Part shown: one piece after another, positions 27,873 through 41,134 of the stretch
Numbering within the stretch: the first letter of the stretch is position 1
Layout: the number at the start of each line of letters is the position of its first letter
From: Desulfomicrobium sp.
Lineage (GTDB): Bacteria > Desulfobacterota > Desulfovibrionia > Desulfovibrionales > Desulfomicrobiaceae
Reading direction: 5' to 3'
Assembly (NCBI GenBank): GCA_040768745.1
Contig: JAXGMI010000001.1
Location: 1,536,001 to 1,600,000, forward strand
Length of the DNA: 64,000 bases
Position numbers and translations under genes: made by a program
Notes under the pieces: model-generated
Told to the model about the DNA's origin: nothing
Databases searched by the model: none
What the model saw: the letters and a program-made list of their open reading frames with translations, nothing else

Positions 27873-29219
27873 CTACAGCCGCGGCAGGTACCGTTCCAGC
27901 TCGTAATTCGTGACCTGCGAACGGTATTGGTCCCATTCCACGCGTTTGTTGTCCAGGAACTTGCTGAAGATATGCCCGCCCAGGGCTTCGCGGACCAGGG
28001 TGCTGCCTTCCATGGCCTCCAGGGCACGCTCCAGGCTGCCAGGCAGACTGTCGATGCCGCGATCCCGACGCTGGCTGGCGGTCATCGTGTAGATGTCCTC
28101 TTCCACGGGAGCCGTCAGGGCGTAGTTGTCCTCAATACCCTTGAGACCGGCTGCGAGCATGCAGGCAAAGGCCAGGTAGGGATTGCAGGCCGGATCCGGG
28201 GAGCGCAATTCCACGCGGGTGGCCGCTTCCTTGCCAGGCTTGTACATGGGCACACGGACCAAAGTGGAGCGGTTGCGCCTGGCCCAGGCGATGTTGGTCG
28301 GGGCCTCGAAGCCAGGCACCAAGCGCTTGTAGGAATTGACCCACTGGTTGGTCACGGCGGTGAATTCCTTGCAGTGGCTGAGCAGTCCGGCAATGTAGGA
28401 CTTGGCCTCGCGGCTCAGCTGGTGTTCCCCGTCGGCATCGTAGAAGAGGTTGCGGCCGTTCTTGAACAGGGACTGGTGCACATGCATGCCGCTGCCATTC
28501 TCGCCATACAGGGGTTTGGGCATGAAGGTCGCGTAGCAGCCGTTCTGGCGGGCGATCTCCTTGACCACCACCCGATAAGTGATGGCTGTGTCGGCCATTC
28601 TGAGGGCGTCGGCATAGCGCAGAGCCAGCTCGTGCTGGCTGGGCGCGACCTCATGGTGGCCATACTCCACGTGGACACCCATGGAACGCAAGCAGGAAAT
28701 GATTTCGCGGCGGATTTCCCCGGCCAGGTCCAGCGGGGGCGCGTCGAAATACCCACCAGGGTCCAAGGGTTTGGGAGAGGCTGCGCTTTCGAACAGAAAG
28801 AATTCCAATTCTGGTCCGACATAGAAGGAGTACCCTTTGGATGCGGCGGCCTGCAGGTTCCGCTTCAGGCAATGGCGGCTATCGCCGGCAAAGGGGGCCC
28901 CGCTTGGTTCCAGGATGTCGCAGAACATGCGGGCCATGGGGGCGGCAGTGGGTTTCCATGTCACAAGCTGGAACGTGGCCGGGTCAGGCACGGCAATCAT
29001 GTCACTTTCTTCAATTCTGCAAAAGCCCTCCAGGGATGATCCATCAAAACCCATGCCCTCTTCGAAGGCGGCTTCCAACTCGCCAGGCAGGACCTGGAAA
29101 CTCTTCAGGGTTCCAAGCACATCCACAAACCAGAACTGGACCAGCTCTATCTTGTGTTCGCGCACGGCCTTCACCACATCGTCGGAATTCTTGCAGTTGA
29201 AAATGGGAAAATCTGGCAT
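27873..29219 (-). CDS. glnA: Glutamine synthetase type I
   Basis: FDGSS, GPELEFF, HHEVAPSQHE, FMPKP..GENGSGMH and ELRSPDP motifs. Confidence 0.96.
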   Translation of the reverse strand: MPDFPIFNCKNSDDVVKAVREHKIELVQFWFVDVLGTLKSFQVLPGELEAAFEEGMGFDGSSLEGFCRIEESDMIAVPDPATFQLVTWKPTAAPMARMFCDILEPSGAPFAGDSRHCLKRNLQAAASKGYSFYVGPELEFFLFESAASPKPLDPGGYFDAPPLDLAGEIRREIISCLRSMGVHVEYGHHEVAPSQHELALRYADALRMADTAITYRVVVKEIARQNGCYATFMPKPLYGENGSGMHVHQSLFKNGRNLFYDADGEHQLSREAKSYIAGLLSHCKEFTAVTNQWVNSYKRLVPGFEAPTNIAWARRNRSTLVRVPMYKPGKEAATRVELRSPDPACNPYLAFACMLAAGLKGIEDNYALTAPVEEDIYTMTASQRRDRGIDSLPGSLERALEAMEGSTLVREALGGHIFSKFLDNKRVEWDQYRSQVTNYELERYLPRL

Positions 29220-29350: not shown

Positions 29351-30205
29351 TCAAAGGGGGAAGGCCCGGATCCCCGCCTTAGGATTCTTCTGCCAACCAG
29401 ATCTGAAGAGAGCCAAGTCATCCCTGCCGGCCGCAGGCCAGCAGGAAATCCTCCACGCCGCTCCACGGCGGCCCATGCCCTCGCGATCCAGCAGGTTGAT
29501 GATGTGGCTGCCGACCACGGCCACGTCGGCCAGACCGGAAAGCATTCGCACGTGCTCCGGCCTGGAGATACCGAATCCAGCGGCGATGGGCAAACCGGCC
29601 TTGTTTTTCAGATTGCGCACATAATCCACCCCGGCTTGGCCAATGCTGGACCCGGCGCCGGTGATGCCGACCTTGAGCGTCGTGTACAGGAGGCCCGAGG
29701 CGCGGCGTAAAACCGCGTCCAGCCGCGGACCCACGGTGTCCGGCGAGATGACCATGACAGGGTGCAGACCGTGCTGGCGTGCGGCGCCTGCATAATCCCC
29801 GTCCGTTTCGTCCCAGGGCAGGTCCGGCAGGATGACGCCGCTGGCCCCGCTGGCCGCAGCCTGGTGCAGGAATCGCTCCATGCCCATGGCAAAGGGGATG
29901 TTGGCGTAGGTCATGAACATGAATCCGACATCAGGCAACTCGCTGGACAGCGCCGAGCACAGCTCGAAGCAATGCCCGGGCGTGATGCCGACATCAAGTG
30001 CCGCCTGGTTGGCGCGCATGATGGTCGGGCCGTCGGCCAGGGGGTCGGTGAAGGGGATCTGGATCTCCATGAGGCGCACCCCGCAACGGGCCATGAGCCG
30101 GATCAGCTCGGCGTTGACCTCCAGGCTCGGGTAGCCGGCGACCACGTGGGTCATCAGCTGGATGCCCCCGGCGCCTTTGAGCGCTCTGTCGATTCTATTT
30201 TCCAT
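29351..30205 (-). CDS. trpA: Tryptophan synthase alpha (C-terminus probably frameshifted; true stop may be near 29418)
   Basis: [18 protein letters not shown] and AGFGIS motifs. Confidence 0.93.
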
Positions 30206-31433
30206 GACGCACCTCGCTTTCCAGAAAGGAGATCCAGTTTTCGCGGTCCAGCTCCATGGCCGTGATGAAGATGTCCTTGTCCCCGCGCCCCGAGATGTTG
30301 ACGACCATGATCTCGCCCCTGGGCAGCGTCGGGGCCAGCTCCATGGCCCGGGCCACGGCGTGGGACGATTCCAGGGCCGGGATAATGCCCTCCAGCCGGG
30401 TCAGCCGCCTGAAGGCGTCCAGGGCCTGCACGTCGGTGATGGCTGCGAACTCGACCATCTTCTGGTCATAGAGCCAGGCCAGCTCCGGACCCACTCCCGC
30501 GTAGTCGAGGCCGGCCGAGACCGAGTGTGTGTTCTGCAACTGGCCGCTGTCGTCCTGCAGGAAATAGCTCTTGTAGCCCTGCACGATGCCGACCTTGGGC
30601 GTGGAGCCGAAGCGGGCCGCGTTGTCGCCGGGGTTGAGGCCGCGTCCGCCGGCCTCGGCCCCGTGAAAGCGGATCCCTCTTTCCTCCAGGAACGGATGGA
30701 AGAGGCCGATGGAGTTGGATCCCCCGCCCACACAGGCCACGAGATGGTCGGGCAGCCGTCCCTCGCGCTCCAGGATCTGGGCGCGCACCTCGCGGCCGAT
30801 GACGGACTGGAAGTCGCGGACCATGACCGGGTAAGGGAACGGTCCCAGGGCCGAGCCCAGGATGTAGTGCGTGTCCCGCAGGTTCTGGATCCAGTATTTG
30901 AGGGTGGCGTTGACGGCGTCCTTGAGGGTCCTGGTGCCATCGGTGACAGGCACGACCTCGGCGCCCAGGAGCTTCATGGCGTACACGTTGGGGTACTGGC
31001 GGCGCACGTCCACCTCGCCCATGAAGATCGTGCACCCCATCCCGAAACGGGCGGCCACCGTGGCTGACGCCAGGCCATGCTGGCCCGCACCGGTTTCGGC
31101 AATGACCTTGGTCTTGCCCAGGCGTTTGGCCAGCAGGCCCTGCCCCAGGGCGTTGTTGATCTTGTGAGCGCCAGTGTGGGCCAATCCTTCGAGCTTCAGA
31201 TAGATCTTGCATCCGCCCAGTTCGCGGGTCAGGTTTTCGGCAAAATACAGGGGGGTGGGCCGGCCACAGTAATTCTGGTACAGGTCGGCCAGCTCGGCCA
31301 CAAATCCGGGATCGTTTTTGTACTTCAGGTAGCCCTGTTCCAGTTCTTCCAGGGCCGGGACCAGCATTTCCGGCACATAACGGCCGCCGTAGGGACCGAA
31401 ATGACGAGGGAGCATGTCGGATATTCTGCTCAT
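30195..31433 (-). CDS. trpB: Tryptophan synthase beta
   Basis: [23 protein letters not shown] and SAGLDY motifs. Confidence 0.97.
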
Positions 31434-32044
31434 GGATTTCCTCTCAGTATGGTCACGGCGCGGCGGATTTTATCGTGATCCTTGATTCCAGGCGCGCTTT
31501 CCACGCCGGAATTGAGGTCGAAACCACCCGCGCCGGTGGTTTTCATGGTTTCCAGGTTGTGGGGGCCGAGCCCTCCGGCCAGGTACCAGGTGTGGGGGCA
31601 CTGCAGACGTCTCAGGCCTGCGGGGTCCAGGCTCGAGCCATGGCCGCCGCCGGAGGTGCCGCTGTCCAGGAGGATGGCCCGGCAGACCGGTGAGAACATC
31701 CGCATTTTGGCCAGCAACTGACCGGTGGTTTCGTATCGCTGAGGCCACATGGCCCGGATAATGCGTTCCGGCCCCAGGGCCCGACATTGGTCCACGGTGT
31801 GCCCCCCATGAAGCTGGAGCAGGTCGAGGCCGGCCTCCAGGGCGATGGACTGGATCTCGCCCACGTCCTGACGCACGAAGACCCCGACCTTGAGGGCGCG
31901 CCTCGGCTTTTGGGCCGCAGCCCAGGCCGGAGTGACATTGCGGGGGCTCGGCCCGTGAAAGATGAAACCCAGCAGGTCAATGCCCAGTTCGTCACAGAAA
32001 GCCACATCCTCGGGGCGGGTCATGCCGCAGACCTTGATGATCAT
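31430..32044 (-). CDS. trpF: Phosphoribosylanthranilate isomerase
   Basis: IKVCG, QLHG, LAGGL and DLNSGVE motifs. Confidence 0.93.
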
Positions 32045-32813
32045 GACGCCTCCCCAGTCAGACCGGCCAATCCATGACCGGGGTCGGGGTTTTTCATCAA
32101 CGCCGTGCCGACGAGGAGGCCGTCCAGGCCGGCGGATTTGAGTTCCCGGACGTGTGCGGGGGTGGAGATGCCGCTGGCTCCGATCCAGATTTCACCTTCC
32201 TCCTTGCGGCGCACCAGGGTCAGGCAGCGGTTGAGGTCTGTTTGCAGCGTATCCAGGTCGCGGTTGTTGACCTGGATGATGGAGCTCTTGATCTCCTTGG
32301 CCCGGTCCAAATCCCTTTCGTCGAACACTTCCACCACCGGCTCCAGCCCCAGTTCCAGGCACCGGGCGTGCAGTCCGGCCAGTTCATCCTGGGTCCGGAA
32401 CATGCGCACGATGAGCAGGATGGCCGAGGCCGGCGTGGCAGCGGTGGCCTCCACCTGCAGGGGATGGAGGATGAAATCCTTGCGCAACAACGGCAGGCCG
32501 ATATGCCCGGTCTCTGTCAGATGGTCGAGCCTGCCCTTGAAGTAACGGGTTTCGGTCAGGATGGACAAAGCGCAGGCCCCGGCCCTGGCGTAGCCCTCAC
32601 ACGTCTCCCGGGGTGGGGCCCCAAGGTTGATGTCCCCTTTGGACGGGGAGGCCGCTTGTATTCAGCGATGATCCCGCTGGATCCTGACCTGGTCAGGGCC
32701 GAGCCAAAGCCAGGCCTGGCCCCAGCCCATGGCGTGCATACATGCCCTGAGGCCTGCAAGCGCATCAGATCGGCGATCTCTTCAGTCTTGGCTTGGCGGA
32801 ACAGGTCAAGCAT
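32041..32813 (-). CDS. trpC: Indole-3-glycerol phosphate synthase (apparent frameshifts)
   Basis: IIAEYKR in the 5' piece; SILTE, LRKDFI and VNNRDL in the 3' piece. Confidence 0.88.
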
Positions 32814-33807
32814 GGCTCACTCCGCGTGACATCCCCCGGCTCACGTGTGCCCTGGCCTCGTTCATGGCCGCGTGCAGGGAAAGATGGTCTTCCAGCAGGT
32901 GCAGGGCCAATCCCAGGTTCAGGGCGACCATGTCCTTGAGGGGTTGGGATCCACGACCTGAAAGGACTTCCCTTTGGCGTTGGAGGGCCTCGCCCCTGCT
33001 CGGACAACTCAGGTCCTGGGCGGAGCATGCGGCCATGCCGAATTCGTCGGGGTCAAGGTGGGCTTCGCGGACGCTGCCGTGTTCCACGAAGAGGATCCGT
33101 CCGGGTCCGCAAGGGGTCAGTTCGTCGAATCCTCCCGCTCCATGGACAATGGCTGCCCGATCCAAGCCCTGTCGTGTGGCCAGGACCCTGCCCATCATGG
33201 GGGCGAAACGGAAGTCCGGCACGCCCAGAATCTGATGAGTGGGCAAGGCCGGGTTCAGAAGAGGCCCCATGAGGTTGAATATGGTCCGGATGCCGAGCTG
33301 CTGGCGGATGGGCCCGACGTGCCGGAAGGCAGGGTGGAAGTGCGGGGCGAAGAGGAAGACGAAGTTGCGCTTGGCCAGTTCGACTTTGGCCGCTTCGGGG
33401 TCCGAAACCAGGGGATAGCCCAGGTCCTCGACGACATCGGCGCTGCCACATGTGCTCGATACGGCCCGGTTGCCGTGTTTGACCACCTGATATCCCCTGT
33501 CCGCCAGGAAGAAGGAGACGGCCGTGGAGCAGTTGAAGCTGTGCCGACAGTCCCCGCCGGTTCCGCAGGTGTCGATGCGTTTTCCTGAAAGGCCGGTGAT
33601 GAGTCGGGCGTGGCTCAGCGCCGCCTCCACGGCGGCCGAGAGTTCGTCGGCGGTTTCGCCCTTGGCCCGCAAGCCCAGCAGAAACGCACCGGCCTGTACG
33701 GGGGACACTTCCCCAGCCATGAAAAGGTCGAAGACTTCCTTGGCTTGATGGGCGGACAGGTCAGCGCCCGTGGACAGATGCTCGAGGATATGACTGATGG
33801 TGTTCAT
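32806..33807 (-). CDS. trpD: Anthranilate phosphoribosyltransferase
   Basis: DTCGTGGD, KHGNR and RTIFNLMGPL.NP motifs. Confidence 0.95.
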   Translation of the reverse strand: MNTISHILEHLSTGADLSAHQAKEVFDLFMAGEVSPVQAGAFLLGLRAKGETADELSAAVEAALSHARLITGLSGKRIDTCGTGGDCRHSFNCSTAVSFFLADRGYQVVKHGNRAVSSTCGSADVVEDLGYPLVSDPEAAKVELAKRNFVFLFAPHFHPAFRHVGPIRQQLGIRTIFNLMGPLLNPALPTHQILGVPDFRFAPMMGRVLATRQGLDRAAIVHGAGGFDELTPCGPGRILFVEHGSVREAHLDPDEFGMAACSAQDLSCPSRGEALQRQREVLSGRGSQPLKDMVALNLGLALHLLEDHLSLHAAMNEARAHVSRGMSRGVSHA

Positions 33808-33810
33808 GGT

Positions 33811-34398
33811 TCACTCCTGCGCTGTGGCGCACATGTTGATGAAGTTGCGGAGCAGCATGGGGCCTTCTGGTGTCAGGACCGACTCCGGATGAAACTGCAC
33901 CCCCAGCCATGGCCGGTCTTTGAAGGCCAATGCCATGACCTCGCCGCCATCTGCCCGGGCCGTGATGTCGAAAGGCAGATCCGTTCGGCCTTCCTCGTGC
34001 ACGGCCAGGGAATGGTAGCGGCCGACCTGCATGGGGTTGGGCAGACCGGCAAAAAGGCCAGTTCCGCTGTGGTGGATGTCCGATGTTTTGCCGTGCATGA
34101 TTCGCCGGGCCGAGCCCACGGTGACGCCACTGTGGTGCGAGAGGGTCTGGTGTCCCAGGCAGACGCCCAGGACGGGCACGGTGCGCGGCACCAGGTCCAG
34201 AAACCGCAGGCAAAGACCGGTGTTCCGCGGATGGCTCGGGCCGGGTGAGAGGATGACGCCGCGCAAGGCACTGTCTGCAGCCAGATCCAGAATTTCCGGT
34301 TCGTTGTTACGAAGCACGCAGGGATGTGCGCCCAAAGTCTGGAAAACCTGAACCAGGTTGAAAGTAAACGAGTCAAAGTTGTCGATCAGTAAAATCAT
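33811..34398 (-). CDS. trpG: Anthranilate synthase component II
   Basis: IDNFDSFTFN, GVCLGHQ, RYHSL and QFHPES motifs. Confidence 0.95.
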   Translation of the reverse strand: MILLIDNFDSFTFNLVQVFQTLGAHPCVLRNNEPEILDLAADSALRGVILSPGPSHPRNTGLCLRFLDLVPRTVPVLGVCLGHQTLSHHSGVTVGSARRIMHGKTSDIHHSGTGLFAGLPNPMQVGRYHSLAVHEEGRTDLPFDITARADGGEVMALAFKDRPWLGVQFHPESVLTPEGPMLLRNFINMCATAQE

Positions 34399-35784
34399 CG
34401 CCGCCTCCCGTGCTGGTGATGGCCTTCAGATGGCCCGGGCCTTGTTGTGACATTCCTGCCATTCTTTTTCCGGATCTGAATCAAAGACGAGCCCGCGCAC
34501 CTGCCTGCCAATGGATCTGTCCGTCTTCGACCCACAGGGAGCGGATGGTGATGCCTGTGTCCAGATTGACCTGCCCCTGATCCAGTCCGATCCAGCCGAT
34601 GCCCCCGGCATAGGGCCCCCGGTCGAGCTGCTCCTCGTCGGCAATAATCTGCATGGCCCTGATCTTGGGCGCGCCAGAGACGGTCCCCGCCGGGAACCCG
34701 GCCTTCAATACGTCCATGGCGTCCAGGCCGTGGTCCAGTCTGGCCGAGAGATATGAGGTCAGATGCATGACGTGGGAGAAGCGTTCAACCTGCATGTATC
34801 TGTCCACGTGCACGGTGCCGGGAGCGGCGATGCGGCCCAGGTCGTTGCGGCCCAGGTCCACGAGCATGACGTGCTCGGCCCGCTCCTTTTCGTCGGCCTG
34901 CAGATCCTCGGCCAGTACCTGGTCCTCGGCCTCGGTGGCCCCGCGTACACGGGTTCCGGCAATGGGCCGCAATGCAGCAGTCCGTCCTCGCAGCGGATGA
35001 GCAGCTCAGGTGAGGAGCCCATGATCGTCAGGTTCTCGAAGGCCATGAAAAAGGTGTAGGGAGAGGGGTTGATCTGTCGCAGTCGACGGTAGAGTTCGAA
35101 GGGGGAGCCGGAGAACGGAGCGGAAAAACGGGTGGATAAAACAACCTGGATGGCTTCACCCTGGGTGATAAGATCCTTGGCAATGTGAACGCGGCGCAGG
35201 AATTCATCACGGTCCGGGGTACTGGTGATGGCTCCGACCACGGCAGGGGCAAGGGTGCGTGGCCGCTGGCAGCCGTTCAGGTTGGGGGTTGAGTCCAGCG
35301 TCAGGTAGCAGCAACGGTGGTGCAGGTGATCGAAGAGGATGACCTTGCCGGGCAGGACCATGACGGAACGGCCACCTTCAGGTGGGAGTCTGTCGGCCAT
35401 GGCCGGCTCGAAGATTCCGGCCATGTTGTACGCCAAGTACCCGCAAATGCTGCGGGTCATGGCCGGGAGCTTGCCCAGATTCTGAGGCCCGGTGACCGTC
35501 AAGGCCCCCATGCAGGCGCGCAGGCCGGGGATGTAGTCCTGTCCGCTGAATGCCATGAGAGCGTGCAGTCGGGGGTCGTAGCTCTGCACGTCGAGTTTAC
35601 CGCCCCGGCAGGACAGAATCAGTCTGTAATCCCAGCCGATGAGACTATATCGACCCAGACGGCCGTCCACTTCGGTACTTTCGAGCAGAAAGCCCTGCTT
35701 GTCGCGCACGAGGGTCAGGTACAGGGAGATGGGGGTCTGGGTGTCCGCCGGGAGCCAGGTTCCTTGTTGGGGTAAGGTGATCAT
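34373..35784 (-). CDS. trpE: Anthranilate synthase component I (apparent frameshifts near 34975, 34497 and 34428)
   Basis: FLLES...GRYS, QVVLS, NPSPY, SSPE, KERAEH.MLVDLGRND and GTVSGAPK motifs across ORF pieces. Confidence 0.9.
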
Positions 35785-35817
35785 GGTGTCTCCATCATCG
35801 TCGTCGCATTATGGAAT

Positions 35818-35853
35818 AAAAAAGGCCGGATCCTGCAGGAGGATCCGGCCTTT
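35818..35853 (-). terminator. Intrinsic terminator between tyrA and trpE (attenuator)
   Basis: Minus strand AAAGGCCGGATCCT-CCTGC-AGGATCCGGCCTTTTTT. Confidence 0.85.
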
Positions 35854-35893
35854 CTCGCCTTTTTTTACCGTACCGAGACGGCAGCGCATGCCG

Positions 35894-36672
35894 TCAGGAA
35901 GCGGGTCCCCCTGCGTCATGCTTCGTGCGCCACCACCACAGAGCCTTCTGGCTCAGCAGTTCCAGATCGCCGCCCGCGGCAACGTTCAAATACGACCGGA
36001 ACATGCGCACCGCCTCAAGGCTGTGGGGGTTGGCCTCGAACATGGTGGTGAAGAGTGACGCATCCTCGGTGATCATCTTCGTGGCCGCCTCCACGCGCCG
36101 ACCGAACGAGGGCGTGAAGAACCGCTCGATTCCGGTTTCCAGGGGGAAGCGCAAAGGTAGGCGACGGTGGTCACGAAGTTGAGTCCTTGAATATAGGCCA
36201 TGGCACGGTCATGCTCATCGGCCGTTGTGGTGAAGGGTGCAAAGCCCAGGTTGCGGAAGCAGTCCGATATATTATCGGTCGCTTCATGTCCACGCCCTTG
36301 AGTTACGGCAATTCGCAGCTCCGCGTCAAGGGTGGAGGGGCCAAAAAGCGGGTGGGTGCCGACCACGGGCGTGGTGGTGGCGGCGAGCATCTCATGCAGA
36401 GGCTGGACCTTGACCGAGCAGATGTCGGCCAGGATCGTTGTTGCAGAGAGGAACGGGGCGACGGCCCCGACCACCTCGCGCATGGCTTTGATGGGCACGC
36501 AAAGCAGGACCAGAGAAGCGCCGTGAACTGCTTGCGACAAGGATTCCGGGTCGAGGGGCTGGTTGACTTCGGAGACGGGGTATCCTGCGTTCTGGAAGGC
36601 GCGTACGAACCGGGCCCCCATCTGGCCCCTGGCCCCGATGACCACGACGGGCGACGCCGGACTAAGTTTCAT
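35894..36672 (-). CDS. tyrA: Prephenate/arogenate dehydrogenase with WWW C-terminal tail (apparent frameshift in C-run near 36145)
   Basis: IGARGQMG, DICSVK, GTHPLFGP and EHDRAMAYIQGL motifs; ends ...LWWWRTKHDAGGPAS*. Confidence 0.9.
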
Positions 36673-38004
36673 GCGAGTCCTCCAATCCGTTGCCGAGGCG
36701 CACGAGGGACCAGGCGTCCCAGAATCCGGGGAAGGATTTGCTCACACAGTCCGGGTTGTCCAGATGCACACCGATTCCCTTCAGTTCCAGGAGGGAAAGG
36801 CTCATGGCCATGCGGTGGTCGCCATAGGTGCAAAGATTGACGCTGCAAGGTTGAAGGTTGCCGTCTCCACGAATGAGCATACCATCGGGGCGGGCCTCAA
36901 TATACACTCCGGCTTTGGACAGTTCCGTGACCGGCCCCTGAATCCGGTCGCATTCCTTCAAGGTCAGATGCGCGGCCCCGGAAATGACGGTTTCGCCATG
37001 GGCAAAAGCGGCCACGACGGCCACGGTGGGTACGATATCGGGGCAGGAACTCATGTCGATGTCCGCGCCCTGGAGGTTGGAGGGAAAAACTGTGACCGCT
37101 TCGTCCTGCCATTCGATCCGGGCCCCCATGCGGGAGAGGATATCCAGCATGACGCGGTCGCCCTGGGCCGAATCACGGTGCAGACCGGTGATCTGGACCG
37201 GAGTTGAGCCCAGTGCCCCGGCGGCCAGGAAATAGGATGCGTTGGACCAATCCCCTTCCACGCGCATGTTTCGGGCCCGGTAGGGAGCCGGGTCCACGAC
37301 AAGGCGAAGGTTTTCCGGGGCGAGGCCTGCGGCATCGGCGTGACTGCAGGAATGCCATGCATGACCTGTGCGGCGTTCCACAGCCGCAGGCACCCCAAAG
37401 CGGGCCATGGAATCCAGTGTCAGGGCCACATAGGGCCAGGAGGCCGCGTCTTTTCCCCGAGGCCGAATGAGCGTCCTGGTCTTGGCCAAGGGGGCCGCCA
37501 AAAGCAGGCCCGAAAGATACTGGCTGCTCTGCTCCAGATTGATGCTCACTTCGCCGCCATGGAGGCCTGGGCTGTCCAGGACCAGGGGCGGGTATCCCTT
37601 TTTTCTTCAAATACGATGTCGACGCCCTGCAGGGTGAGGGCGTCGGTCAGGTGGGCCATGGGACGATCATGCATGCGTCCCTCCCCGTGGATGCGATAGC
37701 GGCCGGGGATGGCCGCAGCCACGGCGGCCATGAGTCTGCACGTGGTGCCCGACTCCCCGACGTTCATGGAGATGAGTTCCGGGGTGGACGGGCGAGGCAG
37801 GTCGATGCCGCGGACAAAGAGCTTGCCGTCCACAGGCTCGATGGTTGCTCCCAGAAGACGCAGACAGTCCGTGGTTCGTGCCAGGTCCTGGCTGTTCAGC
37901 ACGTTTTCCAGCAGGGACACGCCGTTGGACAGAGCCGCACAGATCAGGGCCCGGTGGGAGAGGGATTTGGAGGAAGGGGCAGGAACGCGGACGGCTGTTT
38001 TCAT
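36662..38004 (-). CDS. aroA: EPSP synthase (apparent frameshift near 37550-37600)
   Basis: PSSKSLSHR, GESGTT, SSQYLSG, KECDR, DHRMAM and KSFPGF motifs. Confidence 0.9.
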
Positions 38005-39113
38005 GTTTGTTCCTGCGGCACGCCGTTCCCGTAAAGCTGCGGCCCGGAGGGATAGCTGCCCAGAACGCGCATGGTATGGCAGAGTTTGGTCAGGTTGTGC
38101 ATGGTGCTTTCATACTGTTCCTGGGACAGGTCGCTTTCCACGTCCATGAAGAAGACGTATTTCCATTTTTCCCCCTTGAGTGGGCGGGACTCCAGCTTGG
38201 TCAAATTGAGCCCTTGGGCGGCCAGCAGGTTGAGGATCGCGGCCAGGGCCCCAGGGCGGTCCGCAGTGGTGAAGAGCAGCGAGGTCTTGTCCCTGCTGCT
38301 GCCGACTGTCGGAGTGGGACCGATGACCAGGAATCTGGTCCAGTTGTCCGGCAGATCCTGGATGTCCAGGGCCACGGCCTTCAGCGCGTAGCGTTCCACC
38401 AGACGCGGGTGCCCGATGGCGGCAGCGCCTTGGCCCTCTCGCTCGGCCTGCATTGCGGCGGCAGCCGTGCTGTCCGCTGGGATGACAGCGGCCTGCGGAA
38501 CGTTGTTCCGCAGCCACCCCGAGCACTGGGCCAGGGCCTGGGGATGGGAATACACCCTGCGCACCGTGGACAGATCGCTGTTTCTGGACAGGAGCGCATG
38601 GCTGATGCGGCTGAAGAGTTCGGCATGGATGTAGACGTTGTACTGCAGAAAAAGGTCCAGGCTCTGGCCGACGCTGCCTTGCAGGGAGTTTTCCAGGGGG
38701 ATGACCCCCAGATCGGCTTTGCGCGATGCCACGTTCAAAAAGACGTCGTGCAAGGTCTGGCAGGGCGCAAAGTCCATGGACTGGCCCAGGTATTCCAGGG
38801 CCGCCTGGTGGGTGAAGGTCCCCTCGGGCCCGAGGTAAGCCACGATCTGGGGCTGCTGCAGGCGCCGGGAGGAAGAGAGGATTTCGCGGTAAATGGCCCG
38901 CAGGTGGTCCTCCGGCAGGATTCCAGGGCTGATGGAGGCCAGGCGGTTCAATACCTCTTTTTCCCGGAAGGGTTTGAAGACCACATCCAGTGATTCGGAT
39001 TTGATCTGACCGACCTCGCGACTCAGGCCCGCCCTCTTGTTCAGAATCTCGACGATGCGGTCGTCCAGTTCGTCGATCTGTTCCCGGATCTCTGTCAGGC
39101 GTGCGCTGTTCAT
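38001..39113 (-). CDS. pheA: Chorismate mutase/prephenate dehydratase
   Basis: REQIDELD..., YLGPEGT, PLENSLQG, SHPQALAQC, TRF and ESRP motifs. Confidence 0.95.
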   Translation of the reverse strand: MNSARLTEIREQIDELDDRIVEILNKRAGLSREVGQIKSESLDVVFKPFREKEVLNRLASISPGILPEDHLRAIYREILSSSRRLQQPQIVAYLGPEGTFTHQAALEYLGQSMDFAPCQTLHDVFLNVASRKADLGVIPLENSLQGSVGQSLDLFLQYNVYIHAELFSRISHALLSRNSDLSTVRRVYSHPQALAQCSGWLRNNVPQAAVIPADSTAAAAMQAEREGQGAAAIGHPRLVERYALKAVALDIQDLPDNWTRFLVIGPTPTVGSSRDKTSLLFTTADRPGALAAILNLLAAQGLNLTKLESRPLKGEKWKYVFFMDVESDLSQEQYESTMHNLTKLCHTMRVLGSYPSGPQLYGNGVPQEQT

Positions 39114-39115
39114 GA

Positions 39116-40084
39116 CTATTCCTTGATGTCCTCGGTGATGCGCATGCCGAAGTGGCGGCCGGCCTGATCCATGCGGCAGAGGACAGCGTCTCCGGGGTGC
39201 AGATCGACCACGCTGACAGGACAGCCATCGGGCCGGACCAGACGGATGGTCTCGGCGTTCTGCAGGAAGATGGAGCCCCTCCTGCCACCACACTCAGCCT
39301 CGATGAGCAGCATGGGCCGAACTTCCACTTTGCAGCGGCCGACTGTGGCCAGGGTGGTGGATCCGTCCGCGGCCACAATGAGCACTTCCGAGCCGGTGTC
39401 CAACTCGTCGAGATAGGAGGTTTTGTCCCCCGGCATGGCCGTGTAGGCGTGCACTGCGCCAGCATTGATGCGGAAGGGGCGCGGAGCGACGTAGGGGTTG
39501 GATTCTGTTTCAGCGTTGATGAGAAAAGTGAATGCGCTGGAGTTGCCGACCAGCATTCCTTGCCCGGACTGCAGACGGCTCATGGTGTCCACACAGACCC
39601 GGTGCCCCAGTCCTGCCGGTCTGACGGTGGTGATGTTTGCAGTGCCCAGGTCAAGAACTCCCTGGCTGAGCTTGAGTTCGCGGACGATGGATTTCAGATC
39701 GCCCACGGCCTGGGGCAGGACGACAAGGGTTTTGACCCCGCGCTCGAGGATGCCGGCGGCAAGTCTGGCCCGGTCAAGGCTGTCCACTTCCACAGCCAGG
39801 TTGTCGGACTGGGCCAGGATGTTCTCCACCGGAATGATTTCCCAGCCTTCCTTCAGAATAACGCGCTTGCCCTGGGACAGGAGATGTACGGCCACCTCCT
39901 CGTCGGGTTTGCCGGCCAGATGGACAAAGCACTGATCCTCTGCGGAAAGGACAGGAATTTTGCTCAAGGCCCGCACCGATTCCTCCCGCCCGAGTTCCAC
40001 GATGATCCCGTCCACCCCGGATTCCAGGGCCAGGGTGACGTGACCCTTGTCATAGGGGACAGCGTAAAAGAATACGTTCGTCAT
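39116..40084 (-). CDS. 3-dehydroquinate synthase II (archaeal type, AroB')
   Basis: GHRVCVDT, PRPFRINAGAVHAY, LQNAETIRL and GRHFG motifs. Confidence 0.92.
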   Translation of the reverse strand: MTNVFFYAVPYDKGHVTLALESGVDGIIVELGREESVRALSKIPVLSAEDQCFVHLAGKPDEEVAVHLLSQGKRVILKEGWEIIPVENILAQSDNLAVEVDSLDRARLAAGILERGVKTLVVLPQAVGDLKSIVRELKLSQGVLDLGTANITTVRPAGLGHRVCVDTMSRLQSGQGMLVGNSSAFTFLINAETESNPYVAPRPFRINAGAVHAYTAMPGDKTSYLDELDTGSEVLIVAADGSTTLATVGRCKVEVRPMLLIEAECGGRRGSIFLQNAETIRLVRPDGCPVSVVDLHPGDAVLCRMDQAGRHFGMRITEDIKE

Positions 40085-40097
40085 GATCGATCCGGCC

Positions 40098-40904
40098 TCA
40101 GAGTTTGGGTTCTTCGAGCAGGGCCAGGGCTTGGTCCACGGTGTAGTCCATGTGTACGACGGCATGCAGGGCCTGCACCAGGCGCGTGGGGTCCTTTGCC
40201 TGAAAGATGTTGCGGCCCATGGACAGCCCAGCACCACCCGAGGATATGGAATCGTGCGCCATCTGCAGGATATCGCGGGGCGAATCCATGCGGGGGCCGC
40301 CAGCGATGACAACGGGCACACAACACCCTTCGGTGACCGTGGCAAAGGACTCCGGGTCTCCGGTGTAGACGACCTTGATCACGTCCGCTCCCAGCTCTTC
40401 AGCGAGGCGTGCGCAGTGGGCCACAGTGGCGGGATCCCATTCTGATTTGACCTTGGGCCCACGGGCGTAGACCATGGCGAGGAGCGGCATGCCCCATTCG
40501 TCGCATTTGGAAACCACCTTCCCCATGTCCCGCAGCATGTCCCTTTCGGATTCGTCGCCAAGATTGAGATGGATTGACACAGCATCAGCACCGAGCTTGA
40601 TCCCGTCCTCAACGCTGCCGACCAGGATCTTGGCGTTGGGAAAGGGGGACAGTGTGGTGCTGGCCGAAAGATGGATGATCAGACCCACATCACGGCCGTG
40701 CCCGCGGTGTGCACATCGGGGCAAGCCCTTGTGCATCAGGACGGCATTGGCCCCGCCCTCGGCCACCTTGTTCACAGTGTCGCGCATGTCCACCAGGCCG
40801 GCAATGGGGCCGACCGTGGTGCCGTGATCAAGAGGGACGATGATGCTTCTGCCCGTGTTGCGGTTGAAAATCCTTTCCAGTCGAACGCTTTTTCCCATGT
40901 TCAT
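40098..40904 (-). CDS. 2-amino-3,7-dideoxy-D-threo-hept-6-ulosonate synthase (DhnA-type aldolase, AroA')
   Basis: IVPLDHG, MVYARG, ELGADVIK, AGGP and GRNIFQ motifs; adjacent to DHQ synthase II. Confidence 0.9.
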   Translation of the reverse strand: MNMGKSVRLERIFNRNTGRSIIVPLDHGTTVGPIAGLVDMRDTVNKVAEGGANAVLMHKGLPRCAHRGHGRDVGLIIHLSASTTLSPFPNAKILVGSVEDGIKLGADAVSIHLNLGDESERDMLRDMGKVVSKCDEWGMPLLAMVYARGPKVKSEWDPATVAHCARLAEELGADVIKVVYTGDPESFATVTEGCCVPVVIAGGPRMDSPRDILQMAHDSISSGGAGLSMGRNIFQAKDPTRLVQALHAVVHMDYTVDQALALLEEPKL

Positions 40905-40944
40905 GGTGTCCTCCGGTTGTGGCCGGGGCTCCGGCGGCGCGTAT

Positions 40945-40980
40945 AAAAAAGGGCCGCCGGCGTGTCGCCTGCGGCCCTTT
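40945..40980 (-). terminator. Attenuator terminator of the aromatic super-operon
   Basis: Minus strand AAAGGGCCGCAGGCG-ACA-CGCCGGCGGCCCTTTTTT. Confidence 0.85.
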
Positions 40981-41007
40981 GGTTGGTTTGCTCTGCGTGA
41001 AAATCGG

Positions 41008-41094
41008 CTAAAGCTGTACCTCCAGACCACAGGCTCTGTTAAAATAGAAGTACCAAAAAAAGTAGAGGCTGTGGGTGGAGGTGACGTTCGCCAT
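41008..41094 (-). CDS. Aromatic amino acid attenuation leader peptide (28 aa)
   Basis: Manual translation: MANVTSTHSLYFFWYFYFNRACGLEVQL*. Confidence 0.88.
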   Translation of the reverse strand: MANVTSTHSLYFFWYFYFNRACGLEVQL

Positions 41095-41104
41095 AGTGAT
41101 TGAG

Positions 41105-41134
41105 GCATTACTCAGTTTGGGAAGTAGGTGTCAA
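41105..41134 (-). promoter_or_regulatory. Putative sigma70 promoter of the leader and super-operon
   Basis: TTGACA at 41134-41129, then AGTAAT after a 16-nt spacer. Confidence 0.55.

Follow-up and report, generated by a model that had tools for sequence, protein, structure and literature searches.

A putative tryptophan attenuator formed by the 3' end of tyrA in an aromatic amino acid supraoperon of the Desulfovibrionales

The tyrA-trpE junction

We report an analysis of the junction between tyrA, the gene for prephenate dehydrogenase, and trpE in a 64,000-nucleotide stretch of Desulfomicrobium sp. DNA (contig JAXGMI010000001.1, positions 1,536,001 to 1,600,000), which is called the window throughout and numbered from its first letter. 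The window holds an operon in the order aroA'-aroB'-pheA-aroA-tyrA-trpEGDCFBA, in which tyrA is the fifth gene, the aroA stop overlaps the tyrA start and the trpE ATG stands at 35784 on the minus strand. A model's reading of the sequence alone (the first-pass annotation) had proposed that the three tryptophan (Trp) codons at the tail of TyrA act as a leader peptide for trpE. The features concerned are as follows.

35930..35938, minus strand: three tandem Trp codons, TGGTGGTGG (WWW in the protein), the proposed stall site; read from the sequence and lying in the last predicted TyrA helix
35902..35914, minus strand: purine box, the putative antiterminator 5' strand, within the tyrA coding sequence; duplex of -20.6 kcal/mol, position conserved
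35894..35896, minus strand: tyrA stop codon, at +33 from the last Trp codon (between +6 and +36 throughout the 104 terminator loci described below)
35877..35895, minus strand: 7-bp hairpin, a candidate pause site; in the genus the stem is kept and the loop varies, and it is not universal in the order
35835..35847, minus strand: putative antiterminator 3' strand, coinciding with the terminator's loop and upper 5' arm; pairs with the box at 12 of 13 positions
35818..35853, minus strand: intrinsic terminator with a U6 tail, predicted by folding, -24.8 kcal/mol
35790..35793, minus strand: GGAG, putative trpE ribosome-binding site, read from the sequence
35894..36672, minus strand: tyrA, full-length prephenate dehydrogenase (Pfam PDH_N), with one base absent from the assembly in the run 36142-36146
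36662..41108, minus strand: upstream supraoperon of aldolase (aroA'), DHQS II (aroB'), aroQ-pheA and aroA, from open reading frames (ORFs) and Pfam
29351..35784, minus strand: trpE-trpG-trpD-trpC-trpF-trpB-trpA, the proposed gated genes, from ORFs, with trpE, trpG and trpD identified by Pfam; trpC, trpF, trpB and trpA are presumptive names, taken from translations and gene order rather than from a Pfam scan

The junction elements lie where the first-pass annotation had placed them. On the minus strand WWW is followed by 11 codons and the stop TGA (35896-35894); the purine box starts 15 nt beyond the last Trp codon, and its duplex with the arm has a single C.A mismatch among the 13 positions. 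The terminator, which had been put about 35 nt before the trpE ATG, consists of an 11-bp core with three A-U pairs, a 5-nt loop and the U6 tail and ends 34 nt before that codon. It was detected by folding, and the consensus terminator scanner did not list 35853-35818. The 7-bp hairpin is present as well. A sigma-70 consensus scan found no promoter-like site between tyrA and trpE, and the same scan missed the junction terminator too.

The tyrA of the window, 259 amino acids in length, has an apparent frameshift, a run of five bases where a relative has six, and the first-pass annotation had named a real frameshift at about 36145, with the tail untranslated, as a refutation of its proposal. An extra G behind 36141 is present in all four sequencing runs (two DNA runs from two studies not flagged as the source, and two RNA runs from one study), so that tyrA is intact, the WWW tail is the true end of the gene and the frameshift is an assembly error. 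Besides 36141, four single-base assembly errors in trpE and aroA (34428, 34495, 34972 and 37598) appear in corrected form in the runs covering them. Both RNA runs (X15 and X16, one study) have a contig that stops at 35939, immediately ahead of the first Trp codon, and none of the pieces listed covers the attenuator; such contigs cannot show transcript ends or levels and were not used as evidence.

Distribution across the Desulfovibrionales

The tyrA tail was matched in 363 of the 401 genomes of this order of sulfate-reducing bacteria, and 190 tyrA 3' ends were taken, 130 from the top hits of a query containing WWW, and hence biased to WWW, and 60 from low-scoring genera. Nine loci were dropped before counting (five with a contig end or frameshift and four without a Trp run), leaving 181 that were scored. 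L220, whose sequence starts inside trpE, was excluded, and L167, initially scored as a terminator locus though without the design, was removed afterwards to leave 103.

A U-tailed terminator is present in 104 of the 181 loci, from 39 genera and seven families, and these are 104 of the 136 loci in which tyrA is linked to a trp gene. They comprise 95 with three Trp codons, seven with four and two with two. The 32 linked loci without a terminator have two (20 loci) or three (12 loci), and the 45 unlinked loci have one (11), two (7) or three (27). Under the same thresholds a U-tailed terminator follows none of the 45 unlinked tyrA genes; every terminator precedes a trp gene. A run of three or four Trp codons is found in 102 of the 104 terminator loci versus 12 of the 32 linked loci without one, and among the named loci (n=80, overlapping the survey set) all 52 with a terminator are linked and have three or four.

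Terminator records include Desulfonauticus, Desulfonatronum, Desulfobaculum, Desulfocurvus, Halodesulfovibrio, Nitratidesulfovibrio and Maridesulfovibrio; the Solidesulfovibrio and Fundidesulfovibrio records among those listed have two Trp codons and no terminator. Neither WWW nor a trp neighbour was found in 20 loci chosen as outgroups in other families of the same phylum (for one of which, L303, the ORF chosen is probably not the TyrA end), and the aligned site reads Trp-Phe or Tyr-Phe in several of these outgroup TyrAs. The arrangement is real and order-wide. It is also more than chance, given that it recurs in so many genera and families and that WWW is rare, being found four times among the 4807 ORFs of at least 150 amino acids in the genome (shadow frames included).

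Some junctions depart from the common design. In L053, L065, L067, L068, L082, L084, L104, L107, L114, L116 and L170, WWW and an adjacent trpE occur without a U-tailed terminator; some of these loci have GC-rich hairpins without a tail and others overlap trpE, and either translational control or loss is possible. In L133, L135, L137-L139, L059, L086, L122 and L165, tyrA lies 3-6 nt from trpE with two Trp codons and no attenuator. In L079 (genome G069) the tyrA attenuator stands directly ahead of a trpC-like gene, and that genome has no close trpE match.

The paired RNA elements

The purine box keeps its distance from the Trp codons. The best 14-nt complement of the terminator arm, scanned from -240 to the terminator, starts at +8 to +22 from the last Trp codon in 92 of the 104 loci. 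The stop codon ranges from +6 to +36 while the box offset stays, so that the box may be inside or outside the coding sequence; in 16 loci with the stop at +6 to +15 the box has the same offset though it lies beyond the stop. The terminator starts at +40 to +78 (L167 aside) and lies past the stop codon in those loci that are listed.

The box is also matched to its own arm. Across 39 genus representatives, cognate pairs reach -21.3 kcal/mol versus -16.2 kcal/mol for non-cognate pairs (0 of 100000 permutations), the native box is better than shuffled boxes in 34 of 39 (p<0.05), and C-G/U-A double changes occur in the box:arm duplex within genera g5, g7, g13 and g30. In a plain alignment of 60 sequences the terminator has 94.5% of cells paired, double changes in 9 of 10 pairs and a covariation of 0.472 versus 0.216 when shuffled; the antiterminator has 71.8% paired, double changes in 9 of 9 pairs and a covariation of 0.271 versus 0.224. 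The covariation that the first-pass annotation had proposed to look for in the antiterminator is thus seen in the preference for cognate over swapped partners and in the double changes within genera, with the register only weakly resolved by the plain alignment.

The two states were folded with a ribosome footprint of assumed size at 103 loci. With the ribosome stalled, at least five box:arm pairs are predicted in 102 of 103 loci; with the ribosome placed at the stop, the same is predicted for 1 of 103. In window foldings the finished terminator wins at equilibrium, so that antitermination must be kinetic. A candidate pause hairpin is found in 19 of 19 loci of the genus, and across the order 48 of 103 loci have a hairpin at or below -6 kcal/mol between the box and the terminator. 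A local hairpin running from the box to the stop, the best structure in some window foldings, was tried as a protector of the box and rejected, since it is lost when the transcript ends just past the terminator loop and since its outer part varies within the genus. No Rfam family reached the gathering score in the window junction or in seven other loci; RF00513 (Trp_leader) is absent from nine sub-threshold matches of the window junction, and the seven loci gave no match to it.

Tryptophan in the tail and body of TyrA

The intact TyrA of a relative in the same genus (L002) matches PDB 2pv7 (E 1.3e-24), and in the predicted model of this protein WWW falls in the last helix (residues 237-252; predicted local distance difference test, pLDDT, of the block 88-93). 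The rest of the protein, the body, has no Trp at all in 93 of 102 attenuator loci, compared with 12 of 32 linked loci without a terminator and 12 of 45 unlinked loci (24 of 77 combined). Counted by genus, any body Trp occurs in 8 of 38 attenuator genera versus 14 of 18 and 13 of 18 of the others, where kin are not independent. The counts of Cys, Met, His, Tyr and Phe in the body have no such depletion.

Stand-alone leaders

Fifty genomes were searched for stand-alone leaders, namely 49 without a trp gene linked to the tyrA locus and G069; matches to the trpE query were obtained in 39 of them and matches to TrpA likewise in 39. The 30 highest-ranking trpE loci were examined, and 29 of these had upstream DNA. 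A script found a short ATG ORF with at least two clustered Trp codons before a U-tailed hairpin in 25 of the 29, two further Trp leaders (L203 and L213) can be read by eye, and the remaining two loci have one Trp. The same purine box, at +11 to +20, and a pyrimidine-rich loop accompany the leader in 22 of the 29. Since the Trp codons of these ORFs are kept while the other residues vary freely, Trp sensing is the simplest reading of them, and it carries over to the form embedded in tyrA. Two genomes with neither a trpE nor a trpA match (G017 and G012) have two Trp codons and no terminator.

One genome, G011, holds both forms. Ahead of trpE, its leader (L191) is what remains of a tyrA 3' end, decayed and 66 codons long and identical at 246 of 308 nt to the junction of a relative, L021, and its full tyrA elsewhere (L020) has kept WWW and the box and lost the terminator. 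Judged by these sequences, the L191 leader directly exemplifies descent from an enzyme tail; all of the stand-alone leaders may have had the same origin. In L191 (G011:C73, about 400-70 nt before trpE) the decayed fragment follows a second terminator and a 29-codon ORF with many Phe, Tyr and Cys residues and a single Trp, which may make a tandem attenuator that answers to a different aromatic signal. Two Trp leader ORFs and two terminators stand in tandem upstream of trpE in L192 and L193 (genus g15) and in L200 (g58), and the Trp leaders of L194, L207, L210, L214, L215 and L217 have a second type of terminator, without the pyrimidine-rich loop and with a different antiterminator pairing.

Discussion

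At the junction the sequence shows an intact tyrA with WWW near its end, then a purine box whose spacing from the Trp codons is fixed, then a U-tailed terminator complementary to the box, followed by the trp genes. From the survey, the covariation, the folding and the stand-alone leaders, all of them comparisons of sequence, we think it highly probable that this is a ribosome-dependent, Trp-sensing transcription attenuator within an aro-phe-tyr-trp supraoperon, with the 3' end of a functional tyrA as its leader, much as the first-pass annotation had read the WWW tail. When charged tRNA-Trp is plentiful, the ribosome trailing RNA polymerase would reach the tyrA stop and cover the box while the terminator is made, and transcription would end before trpE. 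When charged tRNA-Trp is scarce, the ribosome would stall at WWW with its footprint short of the box, and the free box would capture the emerging 5' arm and loop of the terminator, so that the trp genes are transcribed. Antitermination would be kinetic, and the five upstream genes would be transcribed in either state.

A number of observations weigh against this reading. The first concern sampling: 130 of the 190 loci were picked by a query containing WWW, and the genomes are related, so that counts overstate independence. Others concern the tail. The middle Trp of WWW is invariant in 27 of 27 aligned TyrAs, the third position is aromatic in unlinked TyrAs, and one Trp of the tail is structural; 27 of the 45 unlinked TyrAs retain WWW, and 12 linked WWW loci have no called terminator, L108 among them having a weak-tailed one. 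Of the pairing it must be said that several boxes place their own arm 12th to 26th of 39, that the antiterminator covariation is 0.280 when slid by -1 versus 0.271 in place, so that its register is soft, and that purine and pyrimidine runs pair easily. Lastly, 86 of 103 loci are predicted to form the antiterminator with no ribosome present, and with such a default any lag of the ribosome could give readthrough.

The invariant middle Trp and the WWW kept by unlinked TyrAs, together with the Trp-Phe or Tyr-Phe of several outgroup TyrAs, would suit a terminator that is constitutive and leaky and serves to set the dosage of the trp genes, with WWW structural and the box a by-product of Gly and Glu codons. 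Such an account is very improbable in our estimation, since the box offset is unchanged where the box lies beyond the stop, cognate pairing is better than swapped pairing and the design reappears in short leader ORFs. The first-pass annotation had named equal conservation of WWW in TyrAs not followed by trp genes as a test of its proposal, and the outcome is divided: the excess of three or four Trp codons in terminator loci over linked loci without one stands in its favour, and the retention of WWW in unlinked TyrAs does not. With WWW kept there and the middle Trp invariant, WWW alone is not diagnostic; WWW with box and terminator is.

The prediction of box:arm pairing as the default also bears on what the switch senses. 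It implies that there is no classical 1:2 protector, and a 1:2 hairpin between the Trp-codon segment and the antiterminator strand, both of which are G-rich, is not predicted; termination would then need a ribosome sitting on the box. This default would equally be expected of a general coupling sensor, in which readthrough is set by the closeness of ribosome and polymerase at the end of tyrA (through nucleotides or general starvation) and the Trp codons are minor, and the accessible part of PMC2784333 offers a precedent in rph-pyrE, where the stop position of a full-length gene controls an attenuator. We regard it as unlikely: the Trp run stands at a fixed distance in 102 of 104 loci, the TyrA body is depleted of Trp only in attenuator loci, the stand-alone leaders hold their Trp codons with other residues free, and a close ribosome relieves termination in pyrE but would cause it here. 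The missing protector might instead point to a real terminator/antiterminator switch set by a trans factor, an RNA-binding protein or small RNA, for which the conserved stem sequence GCCGC/GCGGC could be a binding site. The geometry is tied to in-frame Trp codons, and no Rfam element reached the gathering score in the window junction and seven loci, where no search was aimed at a TRAP-like protein; a trans factor in place of ribosome stalling seems to us extremely improbable.

Weak support for a Trp attenuator at the tyrA end comes from D. hydrothermalis. In Table 1 of PMC4162548, as excerpted, RNA-seq gives about -2.7 log2 for trpE, trpG and trpD at 10 versus 0.1 MPa, and tyrA and its upstream genes are unlisted for this contrast, a break at the junction; trpC and trpF are also unlisted at 10 MPa, 'not listed' does not equal 'unchanged', and the junction of that strain lies outside the loci compared.

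The history of the element can be sketched more tentatively. On a TyrA tree of 84 rows, made by a quick method and with long outgroup branches, the terminator state takes 13 changes, and the root is unreliable and gives no direction of evolution. It is conceivable, and we would put it at somewhat below even chances, that the embedded form is ancestral in the Desulfovibrionales and arose from a structural Trp-aromatic pair of the last TyrA helix by extension to a Trp run and a purge of other Trp codons; that it repeatedly gave rise to trpL-like leaders as trpE moved away and took a duplicate tyrA 3' end along, a process of which L191 in G011 would be a snapshot; and that a stall before the last helix is finished throttles TyrA as the trp genes switch on, one codon run thereby steering chorismate between the Tyr and Trp branches.

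If the attenuator is as we propose, a cis attenuator can use the coding sequence of a functional enzyme as its amino-acid sensor, and a supraoperon can regulate its distal branch without a leader ORF, promoter or repressor. It would offer a mechanism of trp control for a group that has no Rfam Trp leader match here, and the order, which holds embedded, lost, stand-alone and intermediate forms, would make the origin of leader peptides directly testable. Searches keyed to short leader ORFs would miss embedded elements, so others may exist at gene junctions.

Two further features of the window lie downstream. The trpC gene is split near 32560, a position outside the range compared with the sequencing runs. 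Directly after trpA, at 27873-29219 on the minus strand, is an ORF which, from its translation, we take to be glutamine synthetase-like; glutamine is the amino donor of anthranilate synthase.

Comparison with known systems

The D. vulgaris supraoperon has the same gene order (PMC1173090), and Table 7 of that paper, in the part available, marks a putative attenuator ahead of the first gene only and none between tyrA and trp. We found no description of a tyrA-embedded trp attenuator in the open literature searched, and the accessible portions of PMC5343134, PMC6524683 and PMC3766115 hold nothing on a tyrA-trpE element; subscription surveys of attenuators may bear on novelty.

Among characterised systems, E. 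coli rph-pyrE resembles the junction in that a translated, full-length upstream gene controls an intercistronic attenuator and the position of its stop matters. According to the available text of PMC2784333, the signal there is the supply of pyrimidine/UTP and not an amino-acid codon run, polymerase pausing is sensitive to nucleotides, and the near ribosome blocks the terminator, whereas here the ribosome is predicted over the box, and not the terminator, in most loci. In YtgCR of Chlamydia trachomatis, WWW in a full-length functional protein senses Trp and controls trp genes, which in that case is experimental (PMC7755916). There a stall brings about termination, and its effect comes in trans, by way of a lost repressor; at tyrA a stall is predicted to act in cis, where a paired RNA switch would avert termination.

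The closest likeness is to E. coli trpL (RF00513), as set out in the accessible sections of PMC4615214. In both, a translated ORF ahead of trp genes carries consecutive Trp codons close to its end, an antiterminator and a U-tailed terminator before trpE are mutually exclusive, and a ribosome footprint of about 10 nt decides the outcome, here by prediction: a stall frees the antiterminator strand and the stop position covers it. They differ in that trpL encodes a 14-amino-acid peptide, whereas here a 259-amino-acid enzyme would be the sensor at a site inside the operon, and in that neither a 1:2 hairpin with the Trp codons nor an RF00513 match is found here. A dedicated short 5' leader, typical of trpL, is not what tyrA provides but is what the stand-alone versions in other genera have. 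Judged from sequence, the element appears to be trpL-type attenuation in a new form, with an enzyme as the leader where a dedicated mini-gene is the usual arrangement.
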